Shown piece by piece: positions 590-18,900 of a stretch of 64,000 nucleotides of DNA; the stretch's first letter is position 1, and each line of letters begins with the position of its first letter. Location: contig CAZVXT010000002.1 of NCBI GenBank assembly GCA_964631145.1, forward strand, positions 65,140 to 129,139. The letters are read 5' to 3'. The notes below the pieces were generated by a model that searched no databases, had not been told where the DNA came from, and saw only the letters and a program-made list of their open reading frames with translations. The stretch is from an uncultured Candidatus Saccharibacteria bacterium (lineage in GTDB: Bacteria; Patescibacteriota; Doudnabacteria; UBA920). Both the position numbers and the translations under genes were made by a program.

Positions 590-1714
590 GTGAATAAAAG
601 AGCCATAGCAATATTAGGTGCTATATTTTTGCTTATAGTCGGAACATTGGGTGTAATTATTTATTTGCGAAAAAAATCTACATCTACAACCCAGCAAACT
701 GTAAATAATCAAACAGAAGTAGAACAGCAGTCGCAAGTAGAAATTCCTCAAACTACCGATAATGCCCCCCAAGTTAATAATCAAGCTGTAAAATTAACAG
801 ATGAAGTAGTTATTACCCCTGCTTTGTTTTTTCAAGGTAATGGCATAACTTATTTTAATAAAGCTGGACAATTGTTTCAGACAGATCTTTCTATTTCTGG
901 TAACACTGTATTATTAAGCAATAAAAGAGAGTTAACTATTCCAGGAAAGTCTGATATCTCCAAGATTTTATGGCCTTTAGTAGGAAATGCCTTCGTGGCA
1001 GAAAGTGGCTCTGGATCAAGTAGAACTTGGAGTGTTTATGATGGTGGGCAAGGTGCTTATAATCAATTGCCTGGAGAAGTTAAAAGTTTAGATTGGATGC
1101 CAAACGGAGATAAAATCGCTTTTACTTGGGTTGATTCTAAAAGCAAAACAACTATAAATATAGCTAATCCTGATACTAGCGGCTACCAAACATTAACAGA
1201 ATTGTATGAACCGGATAATGAGATTAAAGTTTCTCCAGATGGACAGTTAATAGCATTTTACAGAACCCAAACTATAGATTTAAATAAAAATGTTATTGCA
1301 ACTGTAGGTATTGATGGTAAGACTTTTAAAGCTGTAGTTAAAGATGGATACAATACTGGAGTTGTTTGGTCTCCAGATAGTAAAAAGTTTTTATTTAATA
1401 AGCGCGATCCTTTTAACCAGAAAATGAGTTTATGGGTAACAGATGTTTCTACAGGCGAGACTAAAAATACTGGAGTTGTAACTTCTTATGATAAAGCAAT
1501 TTGGAGCAAAGACGGAAGCAGTATTTATGCAGCTGTACCAAATGATTCTGGACAAGATACTCTATTTAAAATAAACATCTCAAGTGGTGATAGGAAAGAA
1601 TTTAGCCCTGGCATTGATGTGAAAATGCAAGAGTTGTTTTATAATCTAGAAGAGAATGTAATCTTCTTTAAAAACAGTACGGATGGCTTCTTGTATTATA
1701 TGATCATTGGCTAG
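590..1714 (+). CDS. membrane-anchored PD40/TolB-like beta-propeller repeat protein
   Basis: N-terminal TM helix; repeated WSPDG/WSPDS motifs typical of PD40 repeats; GTG start preceded by an aggaaa RBS. Confidence 0.5.
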   Translation: MNKRAIAILGAIFLLIVGTLGVIIYLRKKSTSTTQQTVNNQTEVEQQSQVEIPQTTDNAPQVNNQAVKLTDEVVITPALFFQGNGITYFNKAGQLFQTDLSISGNTVLLSNKRELTIPGKSDISKILWPLVGNAFVAESGSGSSRTWSVYDGGQGAYNQLPGEVKSLDWMPNGDKIAFTWVDSKSKTTINIANPDTSGYQTLTELYEPDNEIKVSPDGQLIAFYRTQTIDLNKNVIATVGIDGKTFKAVVKDGYNTGVVWSPDSKKFLFNKRDPFNQKMSLWVTDVSTGETKNTGVVTSYDKAIWSKDGSSIYAAVPNDSGQDTLFKINISSGDRKEFSPGIDVKMQELFYNLEENVIFFKNSTDGFLYYMIIG

Positions 1715-1791
1715 GATTATTATAAAACAGCTCTTTACAGAGCTGTTTTTAAATTTAGCGAAATTTTATCAAACTAAGCTATAATATATTT

Positions 1792-3102
1792 ATGGCAACA
1801 AAAAGTGTATTTATTTGTTCTAATTGTGGTAATCAGAGTAGTCGCTGGCAAGGGAAATGTGCCAATTGCGGAGCTTGGAATAGTTATCAAGAACAAACGG
1901 TCTCGGTAAGCAATAAAAGTAAGACTGTCGGTGTTCCTAGTGGTACAAAGCCAATATCTTTATCAGAAGTTAAATCTGACAATTATTTAAGAGTCCAATC
2001 TGGTATTGCCGAATTGGATACTGTTTTGGGTGGCGGATTGGTTCCTGGTGCTGTTATTTTGCTTGGAGGGGATCCTGGTATAGGTAAGTCCACATTAGCT
2101 TTACAGCTAGCTAATTTGCTTGCAAAGCAAAATCATGATGTTTTATACGTTACGGGAGAAGAGTCTGCCCAGCAAATAAAAATGCGAAATGATAGATTGC
2201 CGATTAAACAAGATATTTCAGTTTTAGCAGATACAGATTATGATAATGTTGTTGCGGTGCTATCTACACAAAAGCCAGAAATTGTAATAATTGATTCTAT
2301 TCAAACTTTAAATTCTGCAGAAGTAAATGGTGTGCAGGGAGGGGTAGCTCAATTGAGTTATGTAACTAATGGATTAGTAAGGCTTGCTAAACAGCATCAC
2401 ATAACCACTATTGTGATAGGGCATGTTACTAAGGAAGGTATGTTAGCTGGTCCAAAAACCATAGAACATATGGTGGATGTGGTTTTGTATCTAGAAGGAG
2501 ATAGATTAAGCAGCCTGCGTTTATTAAGAAGTAGTAAAAATAGATTTGGCAGCATTGGCGAAGTTGGTGTATTCCAGATGGTGGAATCTGGTTTAGAAGA
2601 AGTTGCAAACCCCGCTGCCATGTTCTTGGAGCATAAAGATAAAACCATGCCTGGTAGTTGTGTGGCAGTGGTGGCGGAAGGTAATAAAATCTTACTTGTA
2701 GAAGTGCAGGCACTAACTAATACAACTACTGCTACTTATCCCAAAAGGGTTGCATCTGGCTTTGATATTAATCGCTTACAATTGTTATCTGCAATACTCC
2801 AAAAAAGTTTGGGTGTTAATTTATCTAATCAGGATATTTATATTAACATCGCTGGTGGTTTTAAAGTTACAGAACGTGCAGCGGATCTTCCGGTGGTTTT
2901 AGCTATATTATCTTCTTATTATGGCAAAGATTTAGGTCTGGGTACTGCTGCATATGGTGAAGTTGGATTGCTTGGTGAAGTTAGGGCTGTACCACAGGTG
3001 GATAAGCGTAGCAAAGAAGCAAAAAAATTAGGATATAGTAATTTATTTAATAATAAAACTTTAAAATCTATTAATGATATTAAATTATTTTCTAAAAAAT
3101 AA
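1792..3102 (+). CDS. radA: DNA repair protein RadA/Sms
   Basis: N-terminal C4 zinc finger (CSNCGN...CANCGAW), Walker A GDPGIGKST, and a Lon-like C-terminal domain pattern. Confidence 0.9.
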   Translation: MATKSVFICSNCGNQSSRWQGKCANCGAWNSYQEQTVSVSNKSKTVGVPSGTKPISLSEVKSDNYLRVQSGIAELDTVLGGGLVPGAVILLGGDPGIGKSTLALQLANLLAKQNHDVLYVTGEESAQQIKMRNDRLPIKQDISVLADTDYDNVVAVLSTQKPEIVIIDSIQTLNSAEVNGVQGGVAQLSYVTNGLVRLAKQHHITTIVIGHVTKEGMLAGPKTIEHMVDVVLYLEGDRLSSLRLLRSSKNRFGSIGEVGVFQMVESGLEEVANPAAMFLEHKDKTMPGSCVAVVAEGNKILLVEVQALTNTTTATYPKRVASGFDINRLQLLSAILQKSLGVNLSNQDIYINIAGGFKVTERAADLPVVLAILSSYYGKDLGLGTAAYGEVGLLGEVRAVPQVDKRSKEAKKLGYSNLFNNKTLKSINDIKLFSKK

Positions 3103-7582: not shown

Positions 7583-7670
<88 letters not shown>

Positions 7671-8967: not shown

Positions 8968-9545
8968 GATTTTTTTAGCTTTTCAAATAAATCTTGTAAT
9001 TGCTTGATTGCTCTATGCTGAATAACTCTAATTGCACCTTCTGTTTTATTTAACATTTGAGCAATTATATTGTTGTCTAAATGTTCAAAGAATTTTAGCT
9101 TGATTACAGATTGCTGCTCTTCATTTAATTCTTTAAGCAGCTTCATTAATAATCCTTGTTCTACTTCTAAATTAATCAAATCCACTATGTTATTTTCGTA
9201 TTCAACTATATTTTCGATATTTTCTAAAGCAACTTGCGGTCTTTTTTGCCGGTAATAATCTATTACTAAATTCCTTGCTATTTGATATAGCCATCCCTCA
9301 AAAGCTTTGAGGTTTTGAAGCTTAGAAATCCCTGAAAAAGCTTTTACGAAAGTGTCTTCAGTTATGTCTTCTGCTGTCTCTTTGTGGCTAACTCTATAGT
9401 AACAAAATTGGTATATTTTGCTATAATATTCTTCATAAACAGCGGTTAAAGCCGAATCTTCTCCTTTTTGGGCATTTTCAAGGGTGCTGAGGTATTCTGG
9501 TGACTCAGAAAAGCTAGAATAATAAAATATGTTACTACTGTTCAT
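8964..9545 (-). CDS. ECF-type RNA polymerase sigma-70 family factor
   Basis: Region 2 (YQIARNLVIDYYRQK) and a region 4 helix-turn-helix (AQMLNKTEGAIRVIQHRAIKQL). Confidence 0.8.
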   Translation of the reverse strand: MNSSNIFYYSSFSESPEYLSTLENAQKGEDSALTAVYEEYYSKIYQFCYYRVSHKETAEDITEDTFVKAFSGISKLQNLKAFEGWLYQIARNLVIDYYRQKRPQVALENIENIVEYENNIVDLINLEVEQGLLMKLLKELNEEQQSVIKLKFFEHLDNNIIAQMLNKTEGAIRVIQHRAIKQLQDLFEKLKKS

Positions 9546-9629
9546 AAAGACGTGCCGGCTAATGCTTTGTTACATATAATTTTACCATACAATTTGTCTT
9601 CTAAATGTAAGTTTTGGTAGAATTAATAT

Positions 9630-13787: not shown

Positions 13788-13809
13788 CTGGCGGAGAGGG
13801 AGGGATTCG
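13788..13809 (-). repeat. 22-bp partial copy of the tRNA-Ser 3' end; direct repeat with 18806-18827 and a putative att-site remnant
   Basis: ctggcggagagggagggattcg is identical to the 3' acceptor/T-arm of the tRNA-Ser at 18807-18900; similarity stops exactly where GC content rises. Confidence 0.7.
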
Positions 13810-14140: not shown

Positions 14141-15175
14141 TTATTCAGGCTGGCTTATGCTTTCGCTCAAATCATAAGCATCCCCGTGAGACAATAAACC
14201 CTTATATGATGCGACCAATCTGTCTGTGCGATTTTCAGCAAGTTTCTTAAACATCCTCCTTTTTGTGGAAGTTCTTGGCACCCGATGATGCGGAAAATGC
14301 ACCCAGCCGAGAAAATCGACGCCGGAAGCGAGTGTTTTTATAAACACTTTATCCGGATGGAGCGAGAGCTTTAACTCCGTTTCCAAAAACAGCGATATCT
14401 CAGGTAGTATTTTTTCGAGATACTTTCTATCTTCGTGCAGAATTACGAAATCATTGGCATACCTGATACAGTATTCGGCTTTCAGGTTACGCTTCATATA
14501 GTGATCAAATTCATTCATGTATACATTCACTAAAAGTTGAGACGTGAGATTGCCCAGCGTAAGACCTACGCCGGGTCGGCCGTCAGTATGGAAACTACTG
14601 ATTACATCCCACAAGAGATTTACTGTATTGCCATCCGGCATTCTCCGTCTCAAAATATTAACTAAAACTGTATGATCGATATTGGCGAAGAATTTTCGGA
14701 TATCGCATTTTAAAACCCATATGGTGCGCGTATGATTCTTCGAAACTTTCCGTGCATAGTCGCGGAACCTATCAAGCGCCCGGTGTGTGTCTTTCCCGCG
14801 ACGGCAGGAATAGGAGTCGAAAATAAATTTCTGATCGAAATACGGATACAAGACTCTGTAAATAGCGTGATGAAGGAGGTGACCTCGCACGGTTGCTTTA
14901 TGTATATTGCGCGGCTTCGGATCATTGATGCGGAACGCTGTGTATCCGCCGTGGCGGTAAGTTTTCTCGGCAAGGTCGCTACTAAGGGGAATAATATTAT
15001 CGGTAAACCTAACGGAGAATTTTTTGACGTCTTTGCGGCCGCGCTTGCCTTTGAGGAATTCGCGCCATGCTACAAGCAGGTTTTCCACAGAAATGATATT
15101 ATTATAGGTATGAAAAAATCCGGCATTTCCTCTCTCTCTCTCTCTCGGTGGCGCCTCGATTCTCCAGAGAATCAA
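14141..15175 (-). CDS. diversity-generating retroelement reverse transcriptase; the YxDD box reads YAND
   Basis: N-terminal LLVAWREFLKGKRGRKDVKKF; motif 3 KCDIRKFFANIDH; the DGR-type motif 4 GLTLGNLTSQLL (IGNxxSQ in place of the group II QGxxxSP); RYANDFVIL; lies immediately downstream of the TR on the same strand. Confidence 0.85.
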   Translation of the reverse strand: MILWRIEAPPRERERGNAGFFHTYNNIISVENLLVAWREFLKGKRGRKDVKKFSVRFTDNIIPLSSDLAEKTYRHGGYTAFRINDPKPRNIHKATVRGHLLHHAIYRVLYPYFDQKFIFDSYSCRRGKDTHRALDRFRDYARKVSKNHTRTIWVLKCDIRKFFANIDHTVLVNILRRRMPDGNTVNLLWDVISSFHTDGRPGVGLTLGNLTSQLLVNVYMNEFDHYMKRNLKAEYCIRYANDFVILHEDRKYLEKILPEISLFLETELKLSLHPDKVFIKTLASGVDFLGWVHFPHHRVPRTSTKRRMFKKLAENRTDRLVASYKGLLSHGDAYDLSESISQPE

Positions 15176-15530
15176 AGAGGGATATTTGCTGTGGGTAAGT
15201 ATTGTTCCTCATATTTCCAAAGGCACTCGTTATACGATCGTTTCTAGGATATAAAATAAATTCCTAGACCTTCTTGAGCTTACCCATATCGCTTATTTTA
15301 CCGAAAAAGAAAAGAAAGCGGAAAAAATTTCCGAATGCATTTTAACGCTGGATACGCTCAAATTCTTAGTTGCAGTTGCGTGGGAAGGCAAGCTTGTCAC
15401 TAATAAGCAATGCGAAGAGGTGGCTAGAAAGCTTGAAGAAACCGGCAAGATGTTCCACGGCTGGAAGAAAAATCTGGAAAATCCTGAAAAGAAAAACCGC
15501 GACCTCTAAGATCGCGGAAAAGAAGACAGT

Positions 15531-15662
15531 TTCGAAGGCAGAACACGAACTTGTTGTCCGGATTCCACTCGTTGCCGGGATTCGCCCAATCGTTGTTCAG
15601 CCACAAACCGTCATCGTTGCGTTCGAGGTTGAAAACGTTCGGGTTGCCGTCGGAATCGGTTT
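15531..15662 (-). repeat. DGR template repeat (TR), sense on the minus strand
   Basis: ~130-bp near-copy of the target 3' end; in the VR frame it encodes GNPNVFNLERNDDGLWLNNDWANPGNEWNPDNKFVFCL, which is rich in AAC codons. Confidence 0.8.
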
Positions 15663-15934
15663 GTGCGATGCACCGTCAATACCACTGCCCGCCTGGTGCG
15701 CAGAGCGCAAAAGACTGGGCTGAATTTTATGCGTGATCAAGAATCAGCAAATGCACCACACCAAGTATTTTCTTTTTTTAGACTTTGATATAAATCCTCT
15801 CTGCCAAGCCGTAACCGGGCAGACTCTCAACTCATACAAGCCAGAAAGGTCTTGAAAAGCCGTAGCCGTTCAATACAACCTATCTTTCCGTATTATACCG
15901 CTTGATCTGTATTTTGTACCGCTTTTTTGCTAAA

Positions 15935-17779
15935 ATGAAATTGCATATGGAAAAACACCCGCTTCATCTTAAAAACCCAGAATTGCAGACTTCTCCTGAA
16001 GTCCAGCGTGCTGTCGTGCGCGACGAGCGGGAAAGCGGAGAGAAAGTTCCGAATAATCCATCGGAGCGCATCGAGGCTTACATGGATCGCCTTAAGAATA
16101 TCTTCCTTAATCCAGATCAACGCGTCCGAGAACGCAATCTCGAAATGTTCCGCGACAAGATCTATGACGCGCTTATCATAAAGAAAGAGAATTTCCCTGA
16201 TTCATACTTTGAGCTTCAAAAGCGCATCGCCCGGGAACGAGGCCAGCACATAGAAGAAATTCCCGCAGACGTCCGCGAACAGATAATGGATACCGCGATC
16301 GAAGATCAACGACATTCGCTTGATGCGTGGATGGAGTATCTTACTTCGCCCGATGCTGTTTATCCTGCTTGGTTCAAATACTACGCATGGAATCAGATCA
16401 TCAAACTCTCGCAATTCGACAAGGAACGCGGCGAGTTCAAGACGCGCACAGATTCTACCGTGGCGCCCTTCCCAGATATTTATCGCGAGCCGTTAGCTCA
16501 GATTGCCGATCTTTACGAACGAGTCAAAGACGATAACAAAGATTCCGAGGCCCGCCGAGAATTCGACAAGAAGTTTCCTGCGCTCTATGCCGATCTTATC
16601 TCAAAGTCTCTGGCGGCTTCCATGGAAAACCGCGAGGAAGTGCGCGGAGCGTGGATGAAATACGAACAGGGCGACGGCGAAGCGGCTCAAAAACTATTCC
16701 AGTCTCTTGAAGGAAAAGGAACTGGCTGGTGCACGGCGGGAAAATCGACCGCTGAAACGCAGATAGAATCCGGCGACTTTTATGTCTACTACACCAACGA
16801 TTCAAGCGGTACTCCAACACAGCCGCGCCTCGCTATCCGAATGAACGGACAAAACCAGATCGGAGAGGTGCGAGGCATCCTGCCTTCCCAAGGCGTTGAG
16901 CCGATGATGCAGGAAGTATTGGACGAAAAGCTCGGCGAATTCGGCACCGAAGCTGATGCCTACCGCAAGAAAAGCGAAGATATGCGCATCCTCACGGCTC
17001 TTGAGCGCAAGCATGAAAAAGAGGAGTCATTTACCAAAGAGGATCTTGCGTTTTTGTATGAAATCAATTCTTCAATCGAAGGATTCGGGTACGAGAAAGA
17101 TCCTCGCGTCGCAGAACTTCGACGCGGACGTAATACTGAGGAAGATATACTGGTCATTTTTGAATGCACAAAGGATCAGATCGCTCACATCCCAAGTCAG
17201 ATAACCAAAGACACAAAGGCATATGTCGGCCAGCTTGAGCCAGGCATTTTCCAGAAGCTTCCAGCCACATTGGAACATGTATATACTTCCTTCCCCGACA
17301 AGAAGATATGTAGAGAAAGCGTCGAGGTCGGAGGAAAATCCGCAGAGCAGCTTATCTCCGAAATGGAAGCAGCAGGAATTAATATCAACAGTTATGCTAA
17401 AAGCATGCTGCAAAACTCTGCCGAGTTCATTCCTAGCCCTTATGCCGAAGACATGACGCTCATCCGTCTTACTGTGGAAGATCTTGGTTTCAAAACCAGC
17501 GCAACCACTACACAGGTATTCGAACGAGCCGAAGAACTCGGCCTCGAGTTATGTCCGCCTGATACCGGACCCAGCTACCGCCTTAAATACAAAGACCATC
17601 CTCTTAACGAATGGTTCCGGATCGGGATGAAGCCAATCACCGTTTCCGGCCGCCCGGACGTTTTCTACCTCGGACGCTACGATGACGGTTTGTGGCTGAG
17701 CGGCGGTTGGGCGAATCCCGGCGACGAGTGGCCTCCGGACTACAAGTTCGTGTTCCGCCTTCGCAAGTCTGAAGCTTAG
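15935..17779 (+). CDS. DGR target (variable) protein, 614 aa; no recognisable N-terminal domain and no signal peptide
   Basis: The C-terminal 40 aa are encoded by the VR; GC-rich; start taken as the ATG at 15935 (the track ORF begins at an upstream TTG at 15902); extended -10 tgctaaaat immediately upstream. Confidence 0.8.
   Translation: MKLHMEKHPLHLKNPELQTSPEVQRAVVRDERESGEKVPNNPSERIEAYMDRLKNIFLNPDQRVRERNLEMFRDKIYDALIIKKENFPDSYFELQKRIARERGQHIEEIPADVREQIMDTAIEDQRHSLDAWMEYLTSPDAVYPAWFKYYAWNQIIKLSQFDKERGEFKTRTDSTVAPFPDIYREPLAQIADLYERVKDDNKDSEARREFDKKFPALYADLISKSLAASMENREEVRGAWMKYEQGDGEAAQKLFQSLEGKGTGWCTAGKSTAETQIESGDFYVYYTNDSSGTPTQPRLAIRMNGQNQIGEVRGILPSQGVEPMMQEVLDEKLGEFGTEADAYRKKSEDMRILTALERKHEKEESFTKEDLAFLYEINSSIEGFGYEKDPRVAELRRGRNTEEDILVIFECTKDQIAHIPSQITKDTKAYVGQLEPGIFQKLPATLEHVYTSFPDKKICRESVEVGGKSAEQLISEMEAAGININSYAKSMLQNSAEFIPSPYAEDMTLIRLTVEDLGFKTSATTTQVFERAEELGLELCPPDTGPSYRLKYKDHPLNEWFRIGMKPITVSGRPDVFYLGRYDDGLWLSGGWANPGDEWPPDYKFVFRLRKSEA
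17637..17768 (+). repeat. DGR variable repeat (VR) at the 3' end of the target gene
   Basis: Aligned to the TR: 16 mismatches all at TR adenines (A to C/G/T) and one non-A mismatch in the last 10 nt; encodes TVSGRPDVFYLGRYDDGLWLSGGWANPGDEWPPDYKFVFRLRKSEA. Confidence 0.8.
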
Positions 17780-17849
17780 AAGCTTGGTTTCTTTATAACT
17801 TTTTGATTCTTTGGATCTTGGATACTTTGACCCTTTGGCATTTACTCGC

Positions 17850-17882
17850 GGAGCGAGTCCGCGCAATTTTTTATCATGAACA
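17850..17882 (+). terminator. GC-rich hairpin plus T-tract ~80 bp downstream of the VR; target-gene terminator and/or the DGR-associated 3' hairpin
   Basis: actcgcggagcgagtccgcgcaatttttt, with two alternative 6-bp stems. Confidence 0.5.
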
Positions 17883-18027
17883 AGAAAGCCAAAAAACCGA
17901 AATTTCAATATCCATTTACGGATAAAGAGCATGAGGAATCATGCAAGTTTTTGACTGTTCGTTTAATGAATACTGTATCTGACAAAGGATCAAAGGTTGA
18001 GCTAACTGAAACTATATACACTGGCGG

Positions 18028-18284
18028 AACGTGAAGGGCTAGAAATTGTAACCATGAAGCGCGAAAGCCATTCCGCGAAAGAGACAGGACAAAGACCAGT
18101 GTTCAACGAAATTATTGAGGAGCTAAGGCATGGTAAATATAACGGCATTCTGACATGGGCACCTGATCGTATATCAAGAAACGCTGGTGACCTTGGAAAA
18201 TCGTAGACCTAATGGATGCTGGAAAACTTCATGAAATACGAACTTTCGGGCAAAAGTTCGGCAATAATCCGAACGAGAAATTTC
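18028..18284 (+). pseudogene. serine recombinase fragment (residues ~50-140 of the catalytic domain), frameshifted; left arm of an inverted duplication
   Basis: Translates to LAEREGLEIVTMKREAHSAKETGQRPVFNEIIEELRHGKYNGILTWAPDRISRNAGDLGK(fs)IVDLMDAGKLHEIRTFGQKFGNNPNEKFLVR; ~75% nt identity to the reverse complement of 18285-18540. Confidence 0.6.
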
Positions 18285-18694
18285 TCGTTCGGAGAATTAC
18301 TAAACTTTTGATTGTAGGTTCGTATCTCAACAAGTAAATGGTTTTCCATAAGGTCAACCAACACACCGAGGTCGCCCGCGTTTCTACTTAAGCGATCTGG
18401 ATTCCATGTGAGAATCGCATTGTATTTACCAGCTCTTAATTCTTCAATCATTTGATTAAAGACAGGTCGTTGTCCAGAATTTTTTGCAGAGTGAGCTTCT
18501 TTTCGCACTGTGGCGATATGGAGGTTATCTCGTTCTGCTATTTGCTTCATTTCTTTAAGCTGTGAATCAATAGACAAAGCTTGTCTTTCTTCATCTTCCA
18601 TTGATTTACGAGCATACAAACAGTATCTAATATCGGGAAGGGGTTTATTTGGTAAGGTCGCCTTTCCCTCAGACCTTTTATTTATATTATTCAT
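18285..18694 (-). pseudogene. serine recombinase N-terminal catalytic domain, truncated at a palindromic junction (the track ORF 18209-18694 reads through the junction into the other arm)
   Basis: YARKSMEDEERQALSIDSQ catalytic-serine motif; homology ends at NEKFLVR, where a perfect 24-bp palindrome ccgaacgagaaatttctcgttcgg (18265-18288) joins the arms. Confidence 0.6.
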
Positions 18695-18806
18695 ATACTC
18701 AAACTCTCATTGAAAAGAAAGTTTGAGTCAAACAAAAAAGAACGATCGAGTCGTTCTTTTTTGTCTAAACCCTAGCTTTGTGGGTCACAAAACTAACAGG
18801 TTTTCC

Positions 18807-18900
<94 letters not shown>

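Follow-up and report, generated by a model that had tools for sequence, protein, structure and literature searches.

Our analyses of a 64-kb stretch of DNA (the window) have identified a genomic island of 5 kb that is bounded on each side by a copy of a 22-bp sequence from the 3' end of a serine tRNA gene and that carries a DGR together with the remains of two large serine recombinase genes, which are designated here as A and B. The features of the island are summarized in Table 1. The two copies of the repeat (13788-13809 and 18806-18827) are 100% identical and 5,018 bp apart. The GC content between them is 0.467 as compared with 0.348 for the window (47% versus 35%), and it climbs from ~28% to >40% immediately to the right of the distal repeat. 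The start of B lies 113 nt from tRNA-Ser(GCT). The locus thus combines the characteristics by which tRNA-linked islands are recognized (viz. tRNA 3'-end repeats at both boundaries, an integrase gene beside the tRNA, and deviant composition), and the description of this region in the initial annotation as a genomic island with destroyed integrases is borne out. The 3' 30 nt of tRNA-Ser(GCT), including the 22-bp repeat, are identical to those of tRNA-Ser(TGA) at 7583-7670, and the latter gene could accordingly serve as a second attachment site, which is unoccupied.

Table 1. Coordinates and some characteristics of the features of the tRNA-Ser island in the 64-kb window.
Feature	Position	Strand	Characteristics
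Distal 22-bp direct repeat, CTGGCGGAGAGGGAGGGATTCG	13788-13809		Displaced duplicate of the tRNA-Ser 3' end, marking the far island boundary
DGR reverse transcriptase	14141-15175	-	Pfam RVT_1, E=1.7e-18
DGR template repeat	15530-15649	-	120 nt; 87% complementary to 17647-17766
DGR target gene, 625-aa ORF	15902-17779	+	Variable repeat (17647-17766) at gene end
Left arm, remnant of the large serine recombinase gene A, now a pseudogene (about residues 64-153 of 458)	18012-18280	+	Homology to A of L005
Perfect 24-bp palindrome, probable deletion junction	18269-18292		Centred at 18280/18281
Right arm, 5' portion of the large serine recombinase gene B (residues 1-138 of 459)	18281-18694	-	Homology to B of L005
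Perfect hairpin with 14-bp arms, between the tRNA and the start of B	18732-18764		Conserved; same element in L003 and L005
tRNA-Ser(GCT), integration target	18807-18900	-	ARAGORN; 3' end holds the proximal repeat (18806-18827)

The DGR (14141-17779) looks complete, as it contains a reverse transcriptase and a pair of template and variable repeats that differ from each other at template adenines (15 of 16 differences), which is the combination by which these elements are defined. An Avd-like gene (15189-15503, plus strand), which is 86% identical to bAvd of the related locus L043, is interrupted by an in-frame stop near 15252, and this may render the DGR inactive. Cassettes collinear with this one are present in seven related loci (L042-L048). 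The family of the DGR target protein comprises at least 120 clusters, all of those listed being at least 75% identical, and among the matches listed those with a named source are mostly from Paceibacteria. The closest of these cassettes (target 86% identical) are found in L042 and L043, where only a C-terminal recombinase remnant follows in antisense orientation (9199-9592), a further instance of an integrase that has decayed next to a DGR of this family. In L044, an A-like gene is located between tRNA-Ser(GCT) and the DGR.

The remains of the two recombinase genes are arranged as inverted arms between the DGR target gene and the tRNA. The right arm, which derives from B, forms part of a 161-aa ORF (18209-18694, minus strand) that continues for 19 codons into antisense left-arm sequence. 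This ORF contains the Pfam Resolvase domain (PF00239, E=5e-17), within which the catalytic-serine motif YARKS is retained, and it shares 89% aa identity with B of the related locus L005 over residues 1-145 (86.6% nt identity). The left arm, which derives from A, shares 92% aa identity with A of L005 over residues 64-126 (89.7% nt identity), and its match to PF00239 (E=1.5e-6) covers profile positions 25-82 only. A family HMM, which was built from more than 100 family N-termini and applied to the left arm and the sequence upstream of it in all three frames, begins to match within the left arm only at model position 50 (~18012 in the window), leaving positions 1-49 and the serine among them missing; no decayed A sequence was detected with it upstream of 18012 in the three frames. 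Since homology is lacking in any frame upstream of ~18012, the left arm is devoid of the catalytic-Ser (YARKS) region, as the initial annotation had noted. A similarity upstream of 18012 in the MAFFT alignment was considered as a possible remnant of A and rejected, as it is not significant and has no match to the family HMM. The frameshift that had also been reported in this arm consists of the loss of 1 nt from a run of A residues, of which four are present at 18197-18200 and five in the relatives.

The truncation of both arms, which had been suggested as a point to be checked against full-length large serine recombinases, is evident from such alignments: the orthology to full-length family members holds for both arms, and both stop at PNEKF, the start of helix E, with the endpoint at the PNEK/F codons. 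Searches of the 64 kb by tblastn with full-length A and B of the relatives as queries revealed no remnant of the Recombinase (PF07508) or zinc-ribbon (PF13408) domains, in agreement with the earlier view that neither copy reaches them. Without these domains, the window copies fall outside the definition of a functional large serine recombinase and are best filed as pseudogenes by descent; judged from their sequences, neither of them can be functional. As both genes are truncated, the island would be without a working integrase, and the 5-kb island with its DGR is probably immobilised and incapable of autonomous excision. The proposal that the island had become fixed is supported as probable by this loss of both integrases. 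The reference to a single island integrase is to be amended, in that an integrase function was indeed destroyed but two integrases, A and B, were involved.

An ORF of 52 aa (17876-18034) spans the gap between the terminator hairpin of the DGR target gene and the left arm; neither a Pfam match nor homology to the N-termini of recombinases was detected for it. Exactly where the homology of the left arm to A begins, the octamer CTGGCGGA (18021-18028) is identical to the 8 nt with which the 22-bp attachment repeat begins. This octamer could represent a pseudo-att site, or a crossover at microhomology, that removed the 5' end of A, and it may equally be due to chance; the Ala codon at this position varies freely across the family.

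The two arms meet at a perfect 24-bp palindrome (CCGAACGAGAAATTTCTCGTTCGG), which is present as a single copy in the window and was matched in 0 of 100 shuffled sequences in a control. The palindrome reported in the initial annotation is thus perfect and real, although the position given for it (18265-18288) and the boundary between the arms (18284/18285) are both 4 nt too low. The head-to-head arrangement of catalytic-domain sequences around it is likewise real and consists of two inverted pairs, viz. 18069-18196/18366-18493 (128 nt, 71% identity) and 18226-18280/18281-18335 (55 nt, 76% identity). Over ~280 nt, the left arm and the reverse-complemented right arm are 72% identical at the nt level in a MAFFT alignment with a single 1-nt gap, and not ~75% identical as was first estimated. 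The junction region is predicted to fold as single-stranded DNA with -32.5 kcal/mol and is more stable in this respect than its shuffles (z=-6.6), as would be anticipated of arms that are inverted paralogues. With up to 3 mismatches allowed, the palindrome has no second copy in the window, and a tail-to-tail junction was not found there either.

The origin of the palindrome can be traced in the A gene of L005. Its left 18 nt are the native A sequence, CCGAACGAGAAATTTCTC, which at the junction site of L005 is followed by CTGATG, this hexamer there continuing the gene after TTTCTC. The central 12 bp, GAGAAATTTCTC, which code for E-K-F-L, are native to the same gene and constitute one of its two 12-bp perfect palindromes, so that the earlier suggestion of a palindrome intrinsic to the coding sequence is correct. 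The homology of A orthologues to the window ends at 18285-18286 and that of B orthologues at 18276-18278, and the crossover cannot be placed exactly within the 24 bp.

Palindromes can confuse de Bruijn graphs, and contigs of the relatives often end inside the recombinase gene (L006, L008, L012, and L030), a gene that in Patescibacteria metagenomes seems often to be a pseudogene or a point at which assemblies break; both observations would accord with a contig that was falsely joined at the palindrome or with chimeric foldback reads, the alternative mentioned in the initial annotation. However, the 161-aa ORF is present, in exactly this form and with its 19 junk codons, on Logan contigs of two different runs, one of which (L001, SRR12712853) matches the window from 14265 to 18755 at 99.93% and the other (L002, SRR12712865) from 15942 to 18833 at 100%. 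Logan contigs are assembled with k=31. Because this length exceeds that of the palindrome, and because native A continues with CTGATG after TTTCTC, the 31-mers that span the junction (e.g., CAATAATCCGAACGAGAAATTTCTCGTTCGG) cannot derive from intact A or B genes and must exist in the reads. Additionally, the arms are diverged paralogues, where foldback chimeras would give identical copies, and both flanks are collinear with the remainder of the island. We therefore consider an assembly or amplification artefact to be extremely improbable.

When the species genomes of GTDB were scanned with the protein of the right arm, 28 loci were recovered, most of which hold intact genes of 418-460 aa. In three of these (viz. 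L005, JBGAFY010000122; L009, JBDHUP010000002, from Paceibacteria; and L010, CALRFT010000007), A and B are both intact and form a convergent pair, so that the search for an intact homolog in relatives, which the initial annotation had recommended, was successful for both genes. B (459 aa) and A (458 aa) are located on opposite strands and their coding 3' ends overlap by 20 nt. Each contains the Resolvase, Recombinase, and Zn_ribbon_recom domains, and the two proteins are 54.5% identical to each other (52-54% nt identity overall). The start of B is near a tRNA-Ser in L009 and L010, while the contig of L005 begins too near to B to show the tRNA. The tRNA-Ser neighbours of the pair differ in their anticodons (GCT, TGA, and GGA). 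In this ancestral-type arrangement the cargo sits beyond A, and in L009 it comprises a type I methylase and a UvrD-like helicase beside A. A distal direct repeat was not detected inside the retrieved flanks of the relatives' loci, and a relative with an empty attachment site was likewise not recovered. The A and B lineages are each found in several genomes. This conserved convergent recombinase pair is the sole mildly new point of the present work. A literature search for serine recombinases in CPR/Patescibacteria returned no papers.

The assignment of the arms to a family of small resolvases of ~200 aa was considered and rejected, in view of the intact genes of 418-460 aa at these loci and of the many family members of 420-600 aa in the representative library. 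The best 120 protein matches listed are all of 240 aa or less; these short matches are contig-end fragments and pseudogenes. Independent decay of B is seen in three other loci, where the gene is cut at residue 185 (L003, with a remnant that is 97% identical at the aa level to B of L005), carries an in-frame stop at codon 172 (L007), or is cut at residue 154 (L011). In L003 (1-1700), the remnant lies next to a degenerate 3' end of a tRNA-Ser gene, and it directly adjoins a gene for a 266-aa protein with a Gly/Arg-rich C-terminus, the GC content of which is 60-67% as compared with 35-40% for the rest of the contig.

A comparison of the window with these relatives indicates that the locus is, with high probability, the scar of a single 1,864-bp deletion within a convergent pair of large serine recombinase genes. 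The window corresponds to the ancestral pair minus the segment between the equivalent PNEK/F codons of A and B, and the interval that is absent from it measures 1,864 bp by site coordinates in both L005 (2110-3973) and L009 (6415-8278). Both genes have thereby lost helix E as well as their Recombinase and zinc-ribbon domains. The head-to-head arrangement of the arms and the perfect palindrome between them would also be produced by a true foldback, in which one recombinase gene underwent an inverted duplication and its arms diverged later; a foldback rearrangement had been proposed in the initial annotation. This proposal is contradicted by the identities of the arms, which are 87-90% at the nt level to two different orthologues and only 72% to each other, and by the presence of each of the A and B lineages in several genomes, and we regard a foldback as having next to no probability. 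The arms are orthologues of two different pre-existing genes, which are convergent and intact in L005, L009, and L010, and this argues for a deletion and not a duplication.

The manner in which such a deletion could generate the palindrome follows from the arrangement of the genes. As A and B are inverted paralogues, the palindromic coding stretch shared by them would read alike on the plus strand in both, and it may thereby have acted as a short direct repeat on either side of the 1.86-kb interval. The likeliest event would be replication slippage or another form of short-homology illegitimate recombination over 2-12 nt of homology, its endpoints possibly being brought together by intrastrand pairing of the inverted A and B genes. 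The joining of CCGAACGAGAAA from each side at the same codon would then produce a perfect 24-bp palindrome automatically. The removal of the first ~63 codons of A would be due to a later or separate event, and a 1-nt deletion would have shifted the frame of the left arm. Deletion between short direct repeats by slipped mispairing is a classical event.

Several observations bear upon the extent of homology that was available. The GAGAAATTTCTC site opens the most similar block of DNA between A and B, with an identity of 0.71-0.78 over B nt 413-503 versus 0.52 overall. All close relatives of B read CCRAATGAAAAG at this site, versus CCGAACGAGAAA in the window, and hence the ancestral B allele may have contributed no more than 2-6 nt of homology; how long the microhomology was may hinge on whether this allele was CCGAACGAGAAATTTCTC or CCGAATGAAAAGTTT. 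A search for long inverted seeds between A and B in the intact relatives revealed none, and at a nt identity of only 52-54% the formation of a stable hairpin between the two genes is doubtful. A degenerate search of the metagenome collection for a symmetric junction, in which the PNEK codons meet their own reverse complement, returned 9 matches, all of them unrelated palindromes and none of them recombinase-related, which points to a one-off, non-recurrent event and not to a programmed rearrangement.

The DGR cassettes of L046-L048 are followed by an A-type recombinase in the same orientation as in the window (87.5% aa identity to A of L005) and without B, which suggests that A and its cargo may form a module of their own, docking beside B. 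This arrangement lends some plausibility to an antiparallel insertion, in which a circular DGR element carrying A recombined into a resident B at the palindromic site, either illegitimately or by recombinase catalysis, creating the head-to-head junction that is observed here and, at the other end, a tail-to-tail C-terminal junction that was later lost. However, such an insertion needs two events where one suffices, the window contains neither a C-terminal remnant nor a second copy of the palindrome, and the convergent pair with overlapping 3' ends is already intact in three relatives; it is accordingly an unlikely origin for the junction. The site itself is a perfect inverted repeat with a symmetric AT central dinucleotide, which could in principle be joined in either alignment, and the endpoints are exactly equivalent in both genes, as would be anticipated if A and/or B had cut the dyad-symmetric GAGAAA/TTTCTC in their own genes and resolved the two copies as a deletion. 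Against such a recombinase-catalysed self-deletion, the 22-bp tRNA repeat, to which the motif is unrelated, is the real attachment core, the motif is absent from the B relatives, the degenerate junction search yielded no recombinase-related instance, and the sites paired by large serine recombinases are normally unlike (attP and attB) and not identical. A self-deletion of this kind is thus very improbable, and a deletion by short-homology recombination is the preferred explanation of the scar.

Slipped-mispairing deletions offer the closest parallel to the inferred event. In the model of Albertini, Glickman and Ripley, deletions between short repeats are reportedly promoted by intervening (quasi-)palindromes. 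The window resembles such cases in that a segment made of two inverted homologous halves has been lost and one copy of the direct repeat is left at the junction. It differs from them in that the direct repeat arises only because a coding motif of inverted paralogues is palindromic; the mechanism here is deduced from its product, with an ancestral repeat of 2-12 nt. The island itself shares with degraded tRNA-linked islands the tRNA 3'-end target, the direct repeats, the deviant GC content, the cargo, and the dead integrases; such islands classically carry mostly tyrosine integrases, whereas here serine recombinases and a DGR are present. In terms of domain architecture (Resolvase, Recombinase, and zinc ribbon), intact A and B resemble the large serine recombinases SPbeta SprA/YokA, TP901-1 Int, phiC31 Int, and Bxb1 Int, and like the integrases of phages and ICEs they are located at the edge of an integrated element with short flanking direct repeats. 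Their best match among solved structures is SPbeta SprA/YokA (E=5e-9), and their identity to phage integrases is only ~23-26%. The window copies differ from all of these in being fragments without helix E and the DNA-binding domains, one of them also lacking the catalytic serine.

In the SCCmec elements of staphylococci, two paralogous large serine recombinases, CcrA and CcrB, act together at the 3' end of rlmH. The A/B pair shares with this system the presence of paired paralogous recombinases at the end of an island, a target at the 3' end of a conserved gene, and direct repeats of ~20 bp. In contrast to the co-directional ccrA and ccrB, A and B converge and overlap at their 3' ends, and their target is a tRNA-Ser; moreover, A and B co-occur in L005, L009, and L010, but A-type genes also occur without B (L046-L048). 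By analogy, the convergent pair might tentatively be viewed as an obligate CcrAB-like two-subunit integrase of a Patescibacteria-wide family of tRNA-Ser islands moving cargo such as DGRs and restriction-modification systems, a reading that we consider possible but rather doubtful. If it were true, the scar would record the moment at which the island and its DGR became locked into the host chromosome.

The locus is a case of ordinary mobile-element decay in a Patescibacteria tRNA-Ser island and involves no new system or mechanism. Its significance is that an odd palindrome can be explained, in all probability, as a simple deletion scar, which has probably left the 5-kb island and its DGR fixed. 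The recognition of a convergent, overlapping recombinase pair beside tRNA-Ser should also aid the annotation of Patescibacteria genomes, in which these genes are often fragmented or break contigs, and the arrangement suggests two testable integrases with known targets, viz. the 3' ends of tRNA-Ser genes.

Further rearrangements were observed around the recombinase genes of two relatives. In L005 (51-1700), the promoter region of B and the tRNA-side hairpin are separated by the insertion of a 505-aa DUF6119 gene, which is bracketed by two copies of a sequence that matches window 18730-18789. L004 carries an intact A-like recombinase of 456 aa (1676-3046) and, 3.4 kb downstream of it and in the same orientation, a truncated A-type copy of 183 aa (P0015; 6406-6957).
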